Below the pieces are notes generated by a model that saw nothing but the letters and a program-made list of their open reading frames with translations, was not told the origin of the DNA and did not search any database. This document shows positions 29,748 to 37,076 of a DNA stretch of 64,000 bases, piece after piece. The position numbers and the translations under genes were made by a program. Location: NCBI GenBank assembly GCA_044222185.1, contig JBGANV010000004.1, positions 64,001 to 128,000 of the forward strand, written 5' to 3'. The DNA comes from Planctomycetota bacterium. Its GTDB lineage: Bacteria; Planctomycetota; GCA-002687715; CAIWVZ01. The number at the start of each line of letters is the position of its first letter. The stretch's first letter is position 1.

Positions 29748-29918
29748 CGCCGGCTGACCCCCTCTTGCGAAGTGAAACGGCGACGATGATATCCGCGCGC
29801 GCGGCCGTCCGAACGGTCCGACGCGAACTTGCGGAACGCGAGTGTCGCGGGCACGATCGTCGCCGTTCCGTCGGTCCCTGCGCACGTCCCCGCGCCCGGA
29901 TCGACAGGGAGGCATTCC

Positions 29919-32471
29919 ATGTTCCAGCATTCGTTCGGGTCACGGGCGCCGATCGCGGCGGCTGTGTGGATGGCGTTCTGTCTTGCATTGGCACCGATTC
30001 GCACCAACGGCCAGGGGCCCGGCGCGCCGGACCTCCGCGTCGTGTCCGTCGACACGTCAGGGCTGACGGGAGACTGGCAGGTCCTGACGGTGACCGGTGC
30101 CCTCTCCGCGGTCGTGCAGAATGCCGGCTCCGCGGCGGCGGGCCCGTTCACCGTCACGTTCTTCGAGGACGGAAACCACAACGGCGTGTTCAACGCCGTC
30201 GGCGATCGACTCTTTGGGACGGCCGCGGTCGGCGGGCTTGCGGCGGGCGCTCAGGTCGTCGCGTCGATCACGACGCAAGCGGAGATCCTGTTCCGCGACA
30301 ACCTCATCCACGCGTTCGTCGACAGTGCGAACACCGTCGCCGAGAGCAACGAGGGGAACAACGTGGGCCACTCGGGACAGCCGTGCCTCTACCAGCCTGC
30401 GCCGTCACCGTTCGCACCGGCCCTCGAGTGGTCGTGGACGTCGAGCGCGATCGCGCCCACGGCGCTGAACGTCATGGGAACGCCGGCCGTGATCGATCTC
30501 GACGGCGACGGCGCGCCGGAAGTCGTCTTCACGTCGACCTCGTCGACAGGCGGCGGCTACGTGGAGGTCGGGTTCCTTCGTGCGGTTCACGGAGCGAACG
30601 GATCCGAGTTCTTCACGATCACGGATCCGAACCAGCTCGTGAACACGGCGGCATCGGTCGCGGTCGGCGACATCGATGGTGACGGGGCTCCCGAGATCCT
30701 CGCGTGCCACGCATCAGGCAACCGGCTGATCGCGTTCGAGGCCGATGGCACGTTCAAGTGGCTCAGTGCCCCGCTCGAAGTCATCAACTGGGGGGCGCCG
30801 TCCATCGCCGATCTGAACGGCGACGGAGTTCCCGAAATCGTCATCGGGCGGCAGGCGCTCGACAATCTCGGCAACGTGCTGTGGACCGGGACGGGGGGCA
30901 ACGGGTCGGGCGGCAACGTGGGTCCGCTCTCGATCGTGGCCGATCTGGATCTCGACGGCACGCCCGAGATCATCGCCGGCAACACGGCGTACCGCGCGAG
31001 CGGAGCGATCTATTGGCAAGCCAGCATTCCCGACGGGTACGCGGCCGTCGGGAATTTCGACGCCGATTCGTTCCCCGAGGTCGTGATCGTCGGCGGGGGA
31101 TCGGTGTATCTCCTGAACCACGACGGCACGCCCGTGTGGGGGCCGATCGCGATCCCGGGTGGCGGTTACGGTGGGCCGCCGACGATCGCCAACTACGACA
31201 CGGACACGCAGCCGGAGATCGGCGTCGCCGGCGCCGCGCGCTACGTCGTCTTCGAAACCAATGGCACCGTGAAGTGGCAGAGCGTCACGCAAGACGGCTC
31301 GTCGAATCGCACGGGATCGTCGGTGTTCGATTTCGAGGGCGATGGGATCGCCGAGGTCGTCTATCGCGACGAGCTGTTCCTGCGCGTGTACCGCGGCACC
31401 GACGGAACGGTGCTCTTCCAGACGGCGATGAGTTCGTGCACCTGGTACGAGTACGTTCTCGTCGCGGACGTGGATGGTGACGGAAACGCGGAGATCCTCG
31501 CGGTCGCCAACAACAACTGCGGGTTCGGCCCACAGCGCGGCGTCTACGTGTTCGGCGACCCGGCGGACAACTGGGTCGCGACGCGTCGTATCTGGAACGA
31601 GCACGCGTATCACATCACGAACGTGAACGACGACGGCACGATTCCCGCGCACGAGGACGCCAGCTGGCTGTTCCCGTCGGGAGCTCCCTACAACAGCTAT
31701 CGCCAGAACGTGCTCGCGGGAGGATTGCAGGCGACGTCGGCGCCGGATCTCACGGCGTCGCGGATACGCGTGGTCTGCGGCCCGTCGAACGCGACGCTCA
31801 CGGGCCGCGTCGGCAACGGAGGCTCCGTGATCGCGGGTGCGGGAATCCCCGTTTCGTTCTACGCGGGCAACCCCGCGGCGGGTGGGATCCTCCTCGGCAC
31901 CGTGACGACGCCGGTCGCACTTGCGCCGGGCTACTTCGTCGACGTGGCGTTCTCGCCGCCGACACCGATCACGGGCAACATCCCGATCTACTTTGCCGCC
32001 GACGACCTCGGCGGGCTGGTGGGAACGCAGAACGAGTGCCGTGAGGGGAACAACGTGTTCGGCATCAACGGATGCGTGCCTGCCGTCGCTGCGAACTACG
32101 GTGCGGGGTGGCCGGGGACGCTGGGCATCCCCACGCTCTCCGCGAACGTCGCACCCGCGCTCTGCCGGCAGATGGCGATCACGATCGGCAACTCGCGCGG
32201 TGTCGCCACGCCCGCGGCGTTGCTCCTCGGGAGGCAGCCCGCGAGCGTCGCGTTCGGCATCGGCGGACTGGTCCTCGTCGACCCGTTCTCGCCGCTGACC
32301 TCGATCCTCGAGTTCACGATGCCGGCGTCGGGCTCGGTCCTCTCGTTCCAGACTCCGGGGAACATCTTCCTCTGCGGTGAGACGTTCTACATGCAAGTGG
32401 TGATGTTCGACCCGGGCGCGTCGCAGTCGTACGCGTTCACGCGCGGTCTGCAGTCGACGATCGGACTGTGA
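29919..32471 (+). CDS. Secreted FG-GAP/VCBS repeat protein with CARDB domains and C-terminal domain
   Basis: Multiple D-x-D-G-D-G-x-P-E-I/V Ca-binding repeats; PDL...ESNEGNN CARDB; GGAGG SD before ATG 29919. Confidence 0.85.
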   Translation: MFQHSFGSRAPIAAAVWMAFCLALAPIRTNGQGPGAPDLRVVSVDTSGLTGDWQVLTVTGALSAVVQNAGSAAAGPFTVTFFEDGNHNGVFNAVGDRLFGTAAVGGLAAGAQVVASITTQAEILFRDNLIHAFVDSANTVAESNEGNNVGHSGQPCLYQPAPSPFAPALEWSWTSSAIAPTALNVMGTPAVIDLDGDGAPEVVFTSTSSTGGGYVEVGFLRAVHGANGSEFFTITDPNQLVNTAASVAVGDIDGDGAPEILACHASGNRLIAFEADGTFKWLSAPLEVINWGAPSIADLNGDGVPEIVIGRQALDNLGNVLWTGTGGNGSGGNVGPLSIVADLDLDGTPEIIAGNTAYRASGAIYWQASIPDGYAAVGNFDADSFPEVVIVGGGSVYLLNHDGTPVWGPIAIPGGGYGGPPTIANYDTDTQPEIGVAGAARYVVFETNGTVKWQSVTQDGSSNRTGSSVFDFEGDGIAEVVYRDELFLRVYRGTDGTVLFQTAMSSCTWYEYVLVADVDGDGNAEILAVANNNCGFGPQRGVYVFGDPADNWVATRRIWNEHAYHITNVNDDGTIPAHEDASWLFPSGAPYNSYRQNVLAGGLQATSAPDLTASRIRVVCGPSNATLTGRVGNGGSVIAGAGIPVSFYAGNPAAGGILLGTVTTPVALAPGYFVDVAFSPPTPITGNIPIYFAADDLGGLVGTQNECREGNNVFGINGCVPAVAANYGAGWPGTLGIPTLSANVAPALCRQMAITIGNSRGVATPAALLLGRQPASVAFGIGGLVLVDPFSPLTSILEFTMPASGSVLSFQTPGNIFLCGETFYMQVVMFDPGASQSYAFTRGLQSTIGL

Positions 32472-32480
32472 TCGTGTCCG

Positions 32481-32507
32481 ACCGCCGGGCGCCTGCCGTC
32501 CGGCGGT
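32481..32507. terminator. GC-rich hairpin between convergent genes (possible bidirectional terminator)
   Basis: accgccgggcg-cctgc-cgtccggcggt, an 11-bp stem with one G-U pair. No clear U-tract. Confidence 0.45.
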
Positions 32508-32512
32508 GCGTT

Positions 32513-33808
32513 CTACCGTGACGCCTTGGGGCGGAGGTAGCCCGGCGTGTCGTCGCGAGCGGCACGCGGGTGTAAACACTCGGCGGGACGTGGCGTCGTG
32601 ACGAGTTCGAACGCGATGCCGAGGGGATAGTCTCCCGCGCGCGGTGCAACGACGCCGTTCGCGTCGTACGGCAACCCGAACGCCGTCCCCACCGCCAGCA
32701 TGTCGAAACGAGTGATCGCCATCTTCGCGCGATCCACCTCGATGAAGCCGAGGATCGCGGGGTCGTAGGACTCGGGTTTTCCTCCTGTCGTTTCGGCGAG
32801 GTGCGCGACGCCTTCCAAGCGCATCGTGAGCCGGTCCGCGCGCGCATCTTCCACCGTGAGCCGCAGGCGGATGGCAGCGGGCTGAGCCGTGGTGAACGCC
32901 GTGTGCTCGGAGAACCCGCGATTGGGGTCGAGGTGGAAGCGCGCGAGGCGGAGGAGGAACGATTCAGGCACGGGGTAGGACTGTCCTGCTAGCGGCATGG
33001 CAGGGATCAGCGAGCGCCACTCGTTCAGCGGCACCCACATGAAGTCGTTGTGAGCTTCCGCATAGCGGTCGGCCTGCATCTGCGTGGTCTTGGGAACGAA
33101 GTCGCGCAGGGATGCGTATCGCCACCCGCTCGGCTCGCGCGTGGCGAGCTGGCGATTGAACACGCGCAGGACCAGGGCGCCCGCGGGCACGGCGAGAGCC
33201 GTGCGTTTGACGTCCTGCCGGCCTGTCGCGGCGACCATCACCGATCCCGCCAACCGTTCGGTCGGCGGCAGTTGGGCCCACTCGTTCAATGCGGCTTTCA
33301 GCGTCCAGTGGAGATCGGGCGCTGGGAACCGGGGCCGATTGAGGCGGACGCCGCTCGCGGTGACGACGCAGAGCGACCCCGACGCCGTACCGGTCACGCA
33401 ATCCGTCGCGCGGATGAACTCCGAGTCCTCATCCAGGAAGTCGTGGCGCTCGCGGCGCGCGTCGACTGCGACGGCGATGAACTGATCCTTGATGAGTTGA
33501 ACGGCGCTCTCGGTCCAGATCGCCGGCGCACGGCCGGCGGAAGCTGCGGCTCAACACGCTCCGATCGGGGGTCCACCGGCTCCGCCCCAGACCAGGATGG
33601 GTTTGCCCTCGGCTGCTGCCTGGCGGCGCGCCTCGGTGATGCTCAACTTCCAGTCGATCTGCCAGAAGCGCTGCTCATTCGGCTGCGCCCGGATCATGCG
33701 ATGGAGTCGATGGAAGTGTCGCGGCGAGATCGGCTCGGGATCGGTCTCACGCACCGGGAACGACGACACATGAACCAGCACGGCGAACAGGGGCAGCAGT
33801 CGGAACAT
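32513..33808 (-). CDS. Putative selenoprotein: thioredoxin-like (SelN-like) domain with Cys-Sec motif (U86), 431 aa
   Basis: ATG 33808 with GAAGGA SD. Frame is open except for one TGA at 33553-33551, in the context EARRQAAAEGKPILVWGGAGGPPIGAC-U-AAASAGRAPAIWTESAVQLIKDQFIAVAVD. It continues in frame into ORF 32513..33397. A SECIS-like hairpin follows the TGA. Confidence 0.8.
33516..33553 (-). promoter_or_regulatory. Bacterial SECIS-like element
   Basis: mRNA: UGA GCCGCAGCUUC CGCCGGC-CGUGC-GCCGGCG AUCUG. A 7-bp stem starts after an 11-nt spacer, with GU in the apical loop. Confidence 0.7.
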
Positions 33809-34051
33809 CGAACATCCTTCGGAAGGTCGGAAATGAGCGCGCCGAGTGTACTCGCGCCCGAAATCTTGGCCATTCCTCGTCGCGGGGGTTCGCCGCGAAC
33901 CTCGCGGGTCGCCCTGCGGCGGCGGTCGTCGACGCTCGACCGGGTCAGGGGTTCGGACCGGGCGGAAGGCAGGGCTGTCGCGCAGCTCCGCGACTGGGTC
34001 GCAACGCCGGCGACCCGCGCGCACCACTCCGCGTGCCGAGGACTCTCCCGT

Positions 34052-35038
34052 TCAACCGCCCGCAAGCGCGGTGCGGTACCACTGGACCGTCCGGTTCAGT
34101 GCGTCGTCGACGGAGAACGCGTGTCTCCATCCGAGGGTCGTGCGGGCCTTCGTGCAGTCCAGGTACTGCGCGGGGATCTCGCCGGCGGTCTGGCCGAGGA
34201 TCTGCGGCGCCAGGTCGAGCCGTCCGCACGCGCGTTGGATCATGGCGACGAGGTCGAGCACCGAGAGCGGCGTCCCCGTGCCGAAGTTGAACGCCTGCCC
34301 CTGCAGGCCCAGGTCGACCAGTTTCTCGGCGAGGCAGAGATACGCGAGCACGGCGTCCTCGACGTAGAAGTAGTCGCGAATGAGCTTGCCGTCGCTGCGC
34401 ACGACCGGTCGCTCGCCGGCGAGCAGTGATCGGATCGTCCCCGGAACGATCCGGCTGAAGTTGAGATCACCGCCGCCATAAAGATTGCCGCACCGCGTGA
34501 TGGCGATGGGCATCTTGTAGGTCGTCGCGAACGAGATCGCGATGAGGTCGGCGCAGGACTTGGACACGTCGTAGGGGAACCGGCCCTGGAGCGGCGCGTC
34601 CTCGCGGTAGGGAAGGACGTCGTGGGAGCCGTAGGCCTTGTCCGATGACGCGATCACGATCCGCTTGACGAGGGGACCGCACGCGCGGCACGCATCGAGG
34701 AGCGTCCACGTGCCCTTCACGTTGGACTCGAACGTCGAGAGCAGCGAGCGATGCGCGGTGCCCACGATCGTCTGCGCCGCGAGGTGGAAGACGGTGTCGA
34801 TCTCGTACTCGTTGACGGCGCGCAGGCACGTCTCGTAGTCCTCGACGGCGCCGCGCACGACGTTGACTCGCTCGATCGCGCCCGATGTGATCAGTCGCGA
34901 GTTGGCCACGTCATCGCGGATGAGGCAGGTGATCGCAGCGCCGCGCTGGAGAAGCGCATCCACGAGCCACGACCCGAGAAGCCCCGTCCCTCCGGTGACG
35001 AGAACCGGGCGGTTCTTCCACGAGAATGTCGAGCTCAC
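34052..35038 (-). CDS. rfbG: CDP-glucose 4,6-dehydratase-like NAD-dependent epimerase/dehydratase
   Basis: VLVTGGTGLLG, HLAAQ, SSDKAYG, YDVSK, RCGNLYGGGD; GTG start coupled to the rfbF stop. Confidence 0.75.
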   Translation of the reverse strand: MSSTFSWKNRPVLVTGGTGLLGSWLVDALLQRGAAITCLIRDDVANSRLITSGAIERVNVVRGAVEDYETCLRAVNEYEIDTVFHLAAQTIVGTAHRSLLSTFESNVKGTWTLLDACRACGPLVKRIVIASSDKAYGSHDVLPYREDAPLQGRFPYDVSKSCADLIAISFATTYKMPIAITRCGNLYGGGDLNFSRIVPGTIRSLLAGERPVVRSDGKLIRDYFYVEDAVLAYLCLAEKLVDLGLQGQAFNFGTGTPLSVLDLVAMIQRACGRLDLAPQILGQTAGEIPAQYLDCTKARTTLGWRHAFSVDDALNRTVQWYRTALAGG

Positions 35039-35853
35039 GTCCACACCTTCCAGGGCGCGTTGCCCCGCTCCCACAGCGCGTTCAACGCCTGGGCCTCTTT
35101 GAACGTGTCCATGCACTGCCAGAAGCCCTTGTGCTCGAACAGTGCCATCTGGCGATCGCGCGCCAGTTTCTGGAACGGCTCGAGCTCGAGCGTGCACTCG
35201 GCGTCGAGGTAGTCGAACACCTTGCGATTGAACACGAAGAAGCCGCCGGAGGTGAAGTCGCTCATGAGCGGCTTCTCCTGGAAGTAGTCGACGACGCCGC
35301 CCTGCCCGACCTTGACGAGGCCATACTTCGAATGCGGGTGGAATCCCGTGAGCGTGGCGAGCTTGCCGTGGCGGTCGTGATAGGCCACGAGATCGTCGAG
35401 GTTCACGTCGGACAGTCCGTCGCAGTAGTTCGCGAGGAACGTCTCGTCGTGGATGTGATGGCGGACGCCGAAGAGGCGGCCGCCGGTTTGCGTGTTCTGG
35501 CCCGTGTCGACGAAGGTGATCTCCCAGTCCTCGATCGACGGATCGTGTGCGACGATGCCGCTGCCCGGCACACCGAGCTTGAGTGTGAAGTCCTTCATCA
35601 TCCAGTGGTAGTTGATGAAGTACTCCTTGATCATGTTGCCGCGATAGCCGAGGCACAGGACGAACTTCCGGTACCCGTAGTGGTCGTAGTGGCGCATCAG
35701 GTGCCAGAGCACCGGACGACCGCCGACCTCGACGAGAGCCTTGGGGCGGAACTCCGTCTCCTCCCGCATGCGGGTGCCTTGGCCGCCGCAGAGGATCACG
35801 ACCTTCTCCTGGCGTGTCGGCCGCCGATGGCTGCCCGGGGTGATCTGGCTCAC
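35035..35853 (-). CDS. rfbF: Glucose-1-phosphate cytidylyltransferase
   Basis: ILCGGQGTRMREETEFRPK, DTG..TQTGGRL, GFWQCMDT, APWKVW. Confidence 0.92.
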   Translation of the reverse strand: MSQITPGSHRRPTRQEKVVILCGGQGTRMREETEFRPKALVEVGGRPVLWHLMRHYDHYGYRKFVLCLGYRGNMIKEYFINYHWMMKDFTLKLGVPGSGIVAHDPSIEDWEITFVDTGQNTQTGGRLFGVRHHIHDETFLANYCDGLSDVNLDDLVAYHDRHGKLATLTGFHPHSKYGLVKVGQGGVVDYFQEKPLMSDFTSGGFFVFNRKVFDYLDAECTLELEPFQKLARDRQMALFEHKGFWQCMDTFKEAQALNALWERGNAPWKVWT

Positions 35854-37076
35854 GTGAGGATCTTGGGTTCGGGAATGGGGATCAGGAAGCGTCCGCCGGA
35901 TCGACGATACTCCGCCTCCTGCTGAACGATTTCATCGGTCAGGTTCCAAGGCAGGATCAAGGTGAAGTCGGGTCGGTCCGCGGCGAGCGTCCCGCCGGGT
36001 CTCACGGGCAGGTGCATTCCCGGTGTGAGCTTCCCGGCCTTCAGCGGATTGCGATCGACGGTGTATTCCACGAGATCGGTGCCGATGCCGCAGTAGTTGA
36101 GGAGCGTGTTGCCTTTGGCTGGCGCACCGTAGGCCGCGATCCGCTTGCCCTGACTGCGAAGCGAACGGAGCAGGGCGAGCAGCTGCTCCTTGTTCTGCGC
36201 GACCCGCCGGGCGAAGGCGTGGTAGGTCTCGGCGCGATCGAGGCCGCGTGCCCGCTCATCCACGATCATGGACGTGACGACGGGCCCGTGACCCGACCCG
36301 GCCCGCGCGAGGACTCGCACCGTGCCACCGTGAACTGCCACGTGCTGAACGTCGAAGATGGCGAGCCCCGCCCGTTCGAAGGCGTGAGCGAGGGCCAGCA
36401 CGGAGAAGTAGCTCAGGTGCTCGTGGTAGATCGTGTCGTACTCGAGCTTGTCGAGCATGGGCACCAGATAGGGCACTTCGATGCTGACCACGCCGTTCGG
36501 TTCGACGAGCGTTCGACACCCGCGAAGGAATCCGCCCAGATCCGGCACGTGCGCGAGGACGTTGTTGGCGCAGACGGCGCTCGCAGGCCCGTGGCGGCGG
36601 CGGATGTCGACGGCGGCGTCGGCGCCGAAGAAGACGTTCTCCGTCGGCACCCCGCGATCGGTCGCGATGCGCGCCAGGTTCGTCGCGGGTTCGATGCCGA
36701 GGACACGGACCCCGCGCTTCTGGAACGTCGCCAGAAGACTTCCGTCGTTGCTCGCGATGTCGACGACGAGGCTCGTGGGGCCGAGGCCGAATCGCGCGAC
36801 GTGGTGGTCTGCGAGCGCTTCATGGTGACGGGCCATCGTCGACGACGTGCCGGTCATGTACACGTAGTCGTGGAACAGGATCTCGGGATCGACGCGCTCG
36901 GAAAGCTGAACGAGAAAGCAGGTCTTGCAGAACACCAACTCGAGCGGGAAGCGGGCCTCGGGTTCGCTCGCGGCCTCGGGCCGGACGAACGAATTGGCGA
37001 GGGGCGTGGTGCCAAGCGACAGCACCAACTCGGCCCCGGGGGTGCCGCACGAGAGACATTTGACCACTGGCCGCAT
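35850..37076 (-). CDS. NDP-hexose C-methyltransferase (class I SAM, zinc-binding)
   Basis: CLSC...CKTC zinc site; DIASNDG; YDTIYHEHLSYF; HGG; YGAPAKGNTLLNYCG; LPWN. Confidence 0.9.
   Translation of the reverse strand: MRPVVKCLSCGTPGAELVLSLGTTPLANSFVRPEAASEPEARFPLELVFCKTCFLVQLSERVDPEILFHDYVYMTGTSSTMARHHEALADHHVARFGLGPTSLVVDIASNDGSLLATFQKRGVRVLGIEPATNLARIATDRGVPTENVFFGADAAVDIRRRHGPASAVCANNVLAHVPDLGGFLRGCRTLVEPNGVVSIEVPYLVPMLDKLEYDTIYHEHLSYFSVLALAHAFERAGLAIFDVQHVAVHGGTVRVLARAGSGHGPVVTSMIVDERARGLDRAETYHAFARRVAQNKEQLLALLRSLRSQGKRIAAYGAPAKGNTLLNYCGIGTDLVEYTVDRNPLKAGKLTPGMHLPVRPGGTLAADRPDFTLILPWNLTDEIVQQEAEYRRSGGRFLIPIPEPKILT

Follow-up and report, generated by a model that had tools for sequence, protein, structure and literature searches.

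This analysis concerns a gene on the minus strand of the window, by which we mean the whole 64,000-nucleotide stretch of DNA from a Planctomycetota bacterium that was analysed (assembly GCA_044222185.1, contig JBGANV010000004.1). Translation table 11 breaks the frame in question into two open reading frames (ORFs), 33551..34027 and 32513..33397, and the first-pass annotation had proposed that these are two parts of one hidden selenoprotein gene, interrupted by a TGA codon. Minus-strand translation of 32513..33808 gave 431 codons in a single frame, closed by TAG, with TGA as the sole internal stop, and both of the ORFs named in that annotation were reproduced. The internal TGA is codon 86 (33551-33553), located immediately 3' of a Cys codon, TGT (33554-33556), in the context EGKPILVWGGAGGPPIGAC-TGA-AAASAGRAPAIWTESAVQLIKDQFIAVAVD, and the protein motif at this point, with selenocysteine (Sec, U) at the UGA, is PIGAC-U-AAASAGR. 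On the evidence presented below, this is almost certainly a genuine selenoprotein gene. The fuller statement, that the two called ORFs together make up a single gene whose product is an exported selenoprotein of 431 residues with an oxidoreductase mechanism, is also likely to hold as a whole.

The GTG at 34027, with which the upstream ORF begins, is an artefact of ORF listing, being merely the first start codon after a stop. Translation of the selenoprotein gene likely starts at the ATG at 33806-33808, because AAGGA precedes this codon and a hydrophobic N-terminus follows it. TGA also serves as an ordinary stop, since the gene upstream (34052 onward) and several orthologues of the selenoprotein gene terminate in it. 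The gene is present in a single copy in the window's genome (591.6 bits, with one TGA inside). Its features are as follows.

32513..33808, minus strand: the complete predicted selenoprotein gene, 431 codons plus TAG (32513-32515), with ATG at 33806-33808, in a single frame with one TGA
33749..33808, minus strand: N-terminal hydrophobic stretch, approximately residues 1-20, MFRLLPLFAVLVHVSS, read directly from the translation as a probable export signal; boundary approximate
33254..33727, minus strand: thioredoxin-fold domain, approximately residues 28-185
33554..33556, minus strand: Cys85 codon TGT, the vicinal partner of Sec, with Cys in 22 of 24 aligned members
33551..33553, minus strand: UGA codon 86, very probably read as selenocysteine; TGA in all 24 members of the full-length alignment and in all 34 spanning loci
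33522..33538, minus strand: hairpin resembling a selenocysteine insertion sequence (SECIS), GCCGGC, loop CGUGC, GCCGGC, supported by covariation, after a 12-nucleotide spacer (33539-33550)
32516..33253, minus strand: C-terminal beta-rich domain, residues 186-431, with an invariant PLGIAFELV motif; fold family not recognised

To evaluate conservation of the TGA, related loci were fetched from species-representative genomes (11) and from metagenome contigs (34). Eleven of these 45 loci do not reach the TGA column, among them L055, which contains only a paralogue, and in all 34 loci whose orthologous match spans the column the codon is TGA. The eight full-length loci from genome bins all have TGA in this column and read GAGG(A/P)P(I/H)(G/T)xC-U-(A/S)A(A/G)S(A/G)GR around it. 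When the window protein was aligned over its full length with 23 relatives, which are 28-58% identical, Sec86 was invariant (24/24) and Cys85 was present in all but two members, both of which have Cys-Thr-Sec, placing the Cys two residues before Sec. We also searched 401 genomes sampled evenly across the phylum, of which 137 contained a family match at E<=1e-5. Among the 150 matches listed (86 more lie beyond those), 141 span the Sec position, and 138 of the 141 contain a TGA, mostly exactly one per match; of the remaining three, two have Cys at the column (L083 and L084) and one has Asp. Seventeen further TGA loci were fetched from this sample, and all carry TGA at the column; these read GHP(L/F)(G/A)xT-U, and 15 of the 17 have a Cys at the second residue upstream of Sec. 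The larger subfamily to which such loci belong (L066-L085) is marked by a Cys-x-Sec motif, GHPLGCT-U-NNG. Homologues with either an in-frame TGA or a Cys at the site, which the first-pass annotation had said should be sought, were both found.

The codon is also stable among close copies of the gene. Near-identical DNA was found in activated-sludge and bioreactor metagenomes from ten studies, and two independent metagenome assemblies of such DNA both retain the TGA. In run X2, a contig over 32986-34000 has 4 differences from the window that leave the TGA unaffected, and in run X3, a contig over 33443-33744 has its sole difference, a synonymous one, at 33542. Family loci with taxon labels are assigned to Gemmataceae, Gemmatales, Planctomycetia and Planctomycetota. 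Two bins labelled uncultured Alcaligenaceae (L021, L028) yet carry family members, for which mis-binning or gene transfer is possible.

Twelve nucleotides after the UGA lies a 17-nucleotide hairpin with a stem of 6 base pairs, GCCGGC-CGUGC-GCCGGC (33538-33522). Covariation was evaluated on 25 distinct versions of this region, taken from the 34 spanning loci and the window. The 6-base-pair helix was paired in 92.7% of the alignment cells, both sides change in four of its six pairs, and one pair varies widely (CG 11, GC 5, GU 3, AU 2 and UA 2). Covariation in the helix was 0.334, compared with 0.125 +/- 0.026 in shuffled alignments, and none of 500 shuffles reached it; this control overstates significance because the sequences are related, a weakness answered only partly by sliding the partner strand by 1-3 columns, which gave values of 0.046-0.124. 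An added outer pair lacked support, being paired in 20%. Two of the covarying positions are third-codon positions, and their changes are silent at the protein level.

Codon choice in the hairpin was examined within the same genes. The Arg codon in the loop is CGT in 23 of 24 genes, whereas CGT accounts for 9.9% (86/871) of the Arg codons elsewhere in these genes, and the Gly codon before it is GGC in 22 of 24, compared with 53% elsewhere. All 15 of the full-length relatives without Sec, described below, keep Arg93, whereas only about 3 of these 15 keep the Gly preceding it, a residue that all 16 of the 16 Sec forms have, so that the loop Arg looks like a requirement of the protein and the preceding Gly codon a requirement of the RNA. 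Because non-Sec relatives that do not have the hairpin keep the Arg too, this invariant residue probably belongs to the active site. A non-Sec paralogue, the Arg form, has no such hairpin. All 17 of the further members from the phylum sample have a hairpin after the UGA, in the same register as in the window or 3-4 nucleotides further downstream; in the larger subfamily, these registers are xxGAC-CGUGN-GUCxx, which is window-like, or CCAGRC-loop-GUCUGG, 3-4 nucleotides further downstream. The SECIS of Escherichia coli fdhF is a stem-loop of ~17 nucleotides, 11-12 nucleotides past the UGA and within the coding region, with G and U in its apical loop. With its spacer of 12 nucleotides, stem of 6 base pairs and CGUGC loop, the window hairpin resembles this element in geometry, but the two have no sequence similarity and the window hairpin is without an evident bulged U.

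Synthesis and insertion of selenocysteine require dedicated genes, and the first-pass annotation had made its proposal depend on their presence in the genome. The window's genome (7.08 Mb in 16 contigs, 93.8% complete) contains selA, selB, selD and the gene for tRNA-Sec (selC), and all four exceed curated cut-offs. The tRNA-Sec gene (74.7 bits) lies ~80 nucleotides downstream of selA (487 bits) on the same strand (G000:C1:1631186-1632718; L001, L012), and selB (330 bits, C1:529551-531440) is found elsewhere on that contig. The selD gene (370.6 bits, G000:C14:427704-428624; L010) is on the window's contig, outside the window, and since it has one in-frame TGA, the selenophosphate synthetase of this genome is itself a selenoprotein. 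Across the phylum sample, selA was detected in 290 of the 401 genomes. By hand comparison of the listings, it is present in 129 of the 137 family-positive genomes, compared with 161 of the 264 genomes without the family.

We then considered how relatives of the gene appear in protein databases. Among 8000 scored candidates, a search with the read-through protein returned 57 relatives of 265-360 residues, covering at most 76% of the query, and in an alignment of 21 of the 57, every one starts at or after residue 101. The gene callers therefore cut the whole family at the same place. The label 'hypothetical protein' is attached to all of the named relatives seen, most of which are cut off at the Sec position, which agrees with the earlier suspicion that the family is usually mis-annotated in this way. 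A profile search of 1.84 billion cluster representatives (clusters at 50% identity) gave 3072 matches at E<=0.001, 1472 at E<=1e-10 and 390 at E<=1e-30. Of the best 150 of the 3072, 135 start beyond the Sec column and 15 run across it.

The 15 full-length relatives without TGA have Cys (4), Ser (3), Asp (3), Ala (2), Gly (1), Asn (1) or Arg (1) at the Sec column. The Cys forms are P0065, P0079, P0142 and P0155, to which L083 and L084 can be added. Eight of the 15 (P0060, P0068, P0079, P0089, P0155, P0176, P0179 and P0198) are fusions, four with Ser/Thr kinases, three with FecR-type anti-sigma factors and one with an extracytoplasmic function (ECF) sigma factor, and in each the two-domain module is positioned C-terminal to the partner domain. 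Two of the kinase fusions have Cys at the Sec column, and the other six fusions have Ala, Ser or Asp. As read from these alignments, the family is mostly Sec, with some Cys and a minority of non-redox forms, a pattern usual in selenoprotein families and contrary to what a nonsense mutation would leave. The first-pass annotation had held that Trp, Arg or Gly at this position in homologues would indicate a nonsense mutation or a read error. Arg and Gly do occur, in minority paralogues and fusions, but because they stand beside more than 100 TGA forms and several Cys forms, they are no sign of a nonsense mutation.

Additional family members accompany the Sec gene in some genomes. In one lineage, a tandem paralogue lies directly downstream of it (L025:4218-5603, and also L041, L053, L054, L047 and L055), with Arg (CGC) at the Sec column, the preceding Cys kept and the hairpin absent. 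At a later position of this paralogue, LIRER?VAVTI, three contigs have TGA and three others TGC, which may mark another Sec/Cys site or reflect damage, the contigs concerned having breaks elsewhere as well. A more distant second family member (PLGCV-TGA-NNGITDR) was seen just upstream of the orthologue at L024:1955-2164. Several genomes of the phylum sample gave 2-5 matches, and the family is multi-copy in many genomes, unlike the window's.

The structure of the product was modelled with AlphaFold2 from the 24-row alignment, giving a mean predicted local distance difference test (pLDDT) score of 86.6 and a predicted template modelling (pTM) score of 0.87. In the model, residues ~28-185 form a thioredoxin fold, with a beta-alpha-beta ... 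beta-beta-alpha core that can be superposed on solved thioredoxin folds, and Foldseek assigned this fold with high probability at E values above 0.001. Cys85-Sec86 is located on the loop before helix 1, at the CxxC redox position of the fold. A CxxC, UxxC or CxxU motif at the start of helix 1 was not found, there being no second Cys three residues away. A sequence search of the PDB with the family profile returned only 3ira_A, a weak match (E 0.29), in which Cys85-Sec86 falls opposite the CHWC of the chain and the distance to the following strand differs by no more than one residue. The model, Foldseek and the 3ira alignment all place the TGA where the first-pass annotation had placed it, at the redox position of a thioredoxin-like pattern. 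That annotation had also argued that a true stop would cut the fold in half, and in the model strand 1 precedes the TGA, while helix 1 and strands 2-4 follow it. At the level of sequence families, Thioredoxin_7 (PF13899) gave sub-threshold matches in 17 of the 24 members, the best at E 3.3e-4, and Thioredox_DsbH did so in 5 of the 24.

The remainder of the protein, residues 186-431 (245 residues), corresponds to the large uncharacterised C-terminal domain that had been anticipated. Modelled alone, it gave a pLDDT of 86.3 and consists of a long, curved antiparallel sheet with a few helices; it matched no Pfam family below E 0.1, nor was there a convincing match to a solved fold. Conservation within it is strongest at PLGIAFELV. 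The hydrophobic N-terminus of the window protein, described earlier as export-like, resembles a signal peptide by inspection, and the relatives whose N-termini are covered likewise open with a basic residue followed by a hydrophobic segment that gives way to small residues. Because these N-termini look like signal peptides, the protein is presumably exported.

We propose the following mechanism. The UGA at codon 86 would be read by the ribosome as selenocysteine, with the genome's SelB binding the hairpin 12 nucleotides downstream and delivering Sec-tRNA(Sec). The product would be a periplasmic thiol/selenol oxidoreductase in which vicinal Cys85-Sec86 takes the place of CxxC. In its catalytic cycle, Sec86 would attack an oxidised substrate held by the C-terminal domain, Cys85 (or, in the larger subfamily, the Cys two residues upstream) would resolve the adduct as a selenenylsulfide, and a periplasmic reductant would then recycle the Cys-Sec pair. 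Chemistry of this type operates at the GCUG centre of thioredoxin reductase and has been proposed for the SCUG motif of selenoprotein N. In the kinase and anti-sigma fusions, the module may recognise something periplasmic, with recognition coupled to signalling instead of turnover. The single gene, the conserved UGA, the Sec/Cys exchange, the covarying hairpin, the Sec machinery and the thioredoxin fold are shown by the results above, export, the catalytic cycle, the substrate and the electron donor are the parts of this explanation that we infer, and we consider it somewhat probable that the protein is an oxidoreductase using its Cys-Sec couple.

Several observations weigh against this account. 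The presence of selenium in the protein is predicted from genes. Contigs from two RNA libraries match the gene with 0 differences (33569-33820 and 32806-33026), and DNA carry-over is possible in them; they cover both halves of the gene, and none bridges the TGA. Three of the 34 spanning loci are broken downstream of the TGA, L053 and L054 by a frameshift and L047 by a TAG. The folding energy of the 81 nucleotides around the UGA was no better than that of shuffled sequences (z = -0.06), so that the case for the hairpin depends on its covariation and codon usage instead of its energy, and to this must be added the relatedness of the sequences behind the shuffle control. No match was obtained when the window was scanned with Rfam at gathering thresholds. 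Eight of the 137 family-positive genomes are without a selA match; six of these have weak family matches only, one has a match to the C-terminal domain only, and one is 67% complete. With regard to the fold, the window protein scored 13.4 bits (E 0.089) against Thioredoxin_7, below the 27-bit gathering threshold, the active-site loop (87-91) was poorly modelled, with pLDDT below 50, and the cis-Pro position usual in thioredoxin folds is Ala in most members. Because Arg, Asp, Ser, Ala, Gly or Asn replaces Sec in some relatives, part of the superfamily is not redox-active. Finally, comparison of the gene neighbourhoods of 16 loci and the window revealed no conserved partner gene.

As to the broken loci themselves, L053:2750 and L054:2693 keep the TGA and the hairpin and are frameshifted ~85 codons later, and L047:520 keeps both and has a TAG and a 5' frame break. 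Assembly error or a decaying copy may account for each.

Three explanations would remove selenocysteine from the gene. If the TGA were a true stop, there would be two separate products, or only the downstream ORF would be real; gene callers do split the frame here, all 57 database relatives and 135 of the best 150 of 3072 profile matches start after the TGA, and TGA is a normal stop in this genome. We regard this as extremely improbable, since every locus preserves, in frame, the 85 codons that precede the TGA, the two parts jointly make one thioredoxin fold, relatives without TGA are continuous across the site, and the starts of the table-11 ORFs vary by residue among relatives, with no conserved start. 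That the gene is a pseudogene or carries a sequencing error, with what was once a Cys, Arg or Trp codon turned into a stop by mutation, is hardly conceivable. Arg (CGC) or Cys does occupy the column in some relatives, and three related metagenome contigs are broken elsewhere, but the same TGA recurs in 34 of 34 loci and in 138 of the 141 spanning matches listed across the phylum, down to ~30% identity, and is kept by two independent assemblies, while downstream of it the encoded protein is conserved, as are the synonymous sites in the vicinity of the hairpin. There is slightly more room, though still very little, for a UGA that is decoded as something else, either because a near-cognate tRNA for Trp or Cys reads it through or because the code has changed in this lineage. 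Ordinary read-through, too, can be promoted by a hairpin that follows a stop codon, and the identity of the residue as Sec is read from sequence. Against such decoding, other genes end in TGA. The complete Sec machinery, with a selD that itself contains TGA, also argues against non-Sec decoding, as do the tracking of the family with selA (129/137 versus 161/264, the hand count), the recurrence of Cys as the replacement at what is the redox position of a thioredoxin fold, and a hairpin whose short spacer, 17-nucleotide stem-loop and loop G and U are like the geometry of a bacterial SECIS.

The main alternative to an oxidoreductase accepts the selenoprotein and assigns it a different role, namely that of a binding or sensing module whose Sec would trap a ligand, for example a metal or a small reactive compound. 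The same module forms the extracytoplasmic part of the four kinases, the three FecR-type anti-sigma factors and the ECF sigma fusion, six of the eight fusions have a non-redox residue at the column, and several of the bacterial selenoproteins with a CU motif that are catalogued in Table 1 of a recent review are related to metals or organometals (PMC13188914). Stand-alone forms, on the other hand, retain Sec together with a nearby Cys (24/24 in the full-length alignment and 15/17 in the further loci), a pattern typical of redox couples, and the fold family to which the domain is closest (Thioredoxin_7, DsbH, AGR) consists mostly of oxidoreductases. We therefore consider a ligand- or metal-capturing role unlikely, and retain the Cys-Sec oxidoreductase as the working explanation.

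Comparison with known systems places the N-terminal domain within the thioredoxin fold superfamily. All family members fall below the Pfam curated cut-offs of the Thioredoxin_7, DsbH (DUF255), AGR-ERp18 and UAS branch, and they differ from the Thioredoxin_7/DsbH proteins in having Cys-Sec or Cys-x-Sec instead of CxxC, in mostly having Ala for cis-Pro, and in an extra C-terminal domain that is specific to the window family. The GCUG centre of mammalian thioredoxin reductase, which cycles through a selenenylsulfide, resembles Cys85-Sec86 in having adjacent Cys and Sec. In thioredoxin reductase, however, the motif is located on the flexible C-terminal tail of a flavoprotein, whereas in the window protein it occupies the CxxC position and there is no flavin domain. 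Two bacterial groups in the review's catalogue, Trx7/PDZ (NF041199, CxxU) and VPGUxxT (NF041382/3), are like the window family in combining a thioredoxin fold with a hairpin after the UGA, and differ from it in motif and architecture (PMC13188914).

The first-pass annotation had called the protein similar to eukaryotic selenoprotein N (SelN), and as a description only, of a Cys-Sec pair in a thioredoxin-like domain outside the cytoplasm, the term is apt. As outlined in a SelN review, that protein has an SCUG motif, likened there to the GCUG of thioredoxin reductase, in a thioredoxin-like region facing the lumen of the endoplasmic reticulum, an RNA hairpin (the selenocysteine redefinition element, SRE) that immediately follows the UGA, and, a short distance beyond Sec, an Arg affected by a pathogenic mutation (PMC12839072). 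The two proteins thus have in common the Cys-Sec couple, found in the window protein as Cys85-Sec86, the fold class, a non-cytoplasmic location (predicted for the window protein), an adjacent hairpin and an Arg soon after Sec. They differ in layout, since SelN is described as a type II membrane protein of 590 residues with an EF-hand and with Sec near residue 458-462, in its C-terminal quarter (PMC12839072), whereas the window protein has Sec at residue 86, with 345 residues following. No EF-hand was detected in the window protein by Pfam at E<=1, and its only hydrophobic stretch is the short N-terminal one, so that a membrane anchor of the SelN type II kind was not found.

When a natural Cys form, P0065, was submitted to a search of language-model features, the cluster 'Selenoprotein N' ranked first (0.91, 198 of 256 shared features), a score level with those of its own Planctomycetota clusters and reached (0.9) by 4-10 of 100 shuffled proteins, which makes it a lead only. 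SelN was absent among the matches listed in protein searches (in one of these, 120 of 314, all family members) and in PDB searches. That the Planctomycetota family is the bacterial counterpart of eukaryotic SelN, with a Cys-Sec thioredoxin-like domain of common origin, is a tentative and rather doubtful proposal. If it were true, the SRE of SelN, a hairpin that few mRNAs of eukaryotic selenoproteins share, might descend from a SECIS located within a bacterial reading frame. A bacterial enzyme could in that case be used to investigate what SelN catalyses, which two decades of work have left undefined, and the fusions with kinases and anti-sigma factors would suggest a role in sensing like that put forward for SelN. 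The family would then provide a tractable model for a human disease protein.

Because the neighbouring genes are not conserved, genomic context gives no hint of the substrate. Those that recur among the compared loci are PSCyt2/PSD1 genes (3 loci), sulfatases (2), 3-keto-disaccharide hydrolases (2) and GFO/IDH/MocA genes (3). In the window, sugar-nucleotide genes (an epimerase/dehydratase, a nucleotidyltransferase and a C-methyltransferase) lie upstream at 34055-37076 on the minus strand, and an 880-residue FG-GAP/CARDB repeat protein is encoded downstream and convergently at 29829-32471 on the plus strand; no link of either to the selenoprotein was evident. A scan of the window for tRNA genes found none. 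Consensus scans of 32300-34200 revealed no promoter-like site and one terminator-like site, which is inside the gene and at chance level.

We also asked whether the family had been catalogued. No NCBIfam selenoprotein model matched the window protein at E<=1, and across the 24 members the best values were E 0.01 (one member) and 0.057 (two members), far below cut-offs; NCBIfam covers most of the families listed in the review of the prokaryotic selenoproteome of 2026, which counts 119 families and subfamilies (PMC13188914). Table 1 of that review has no entry that combines a Thioredoxin_7-like fold, a CU or CxU motif and a 430-residue architecture, and the string 'Planctomycet' is absent from the text available of the review and of the BSepDB paper (PMC13326102). 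A planctomycete genome paper mentions selenoproteins and, in the portion available, names only FdhA and FmdB; it also states that the genes for Sec insertion are present in Gemmata obscuriglobus (PMC4807772). Literature searches for a planctomycete or bacterial relative of SelN returned none. Because no match was obtained in the review, NCBIfam or the literature, the family appears to be uncatalogued, with the reservation that supplementary lists might mention it.

The gene described here thus represents a large, phylum-wide selenoprotein family that is new and of a known general kind, in which a thioredoxin fold is joined to decoding of UGA via a hairpin. What distinguishes it is the Cys-Sec or Cys-x-Sec pair at the CxxC position of the fold, together with a new C-terminal domain. 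Recognition of the family would correct thousands of gene models, and the known selenoproteomes of the Planctomycetota would be enlarged by it.

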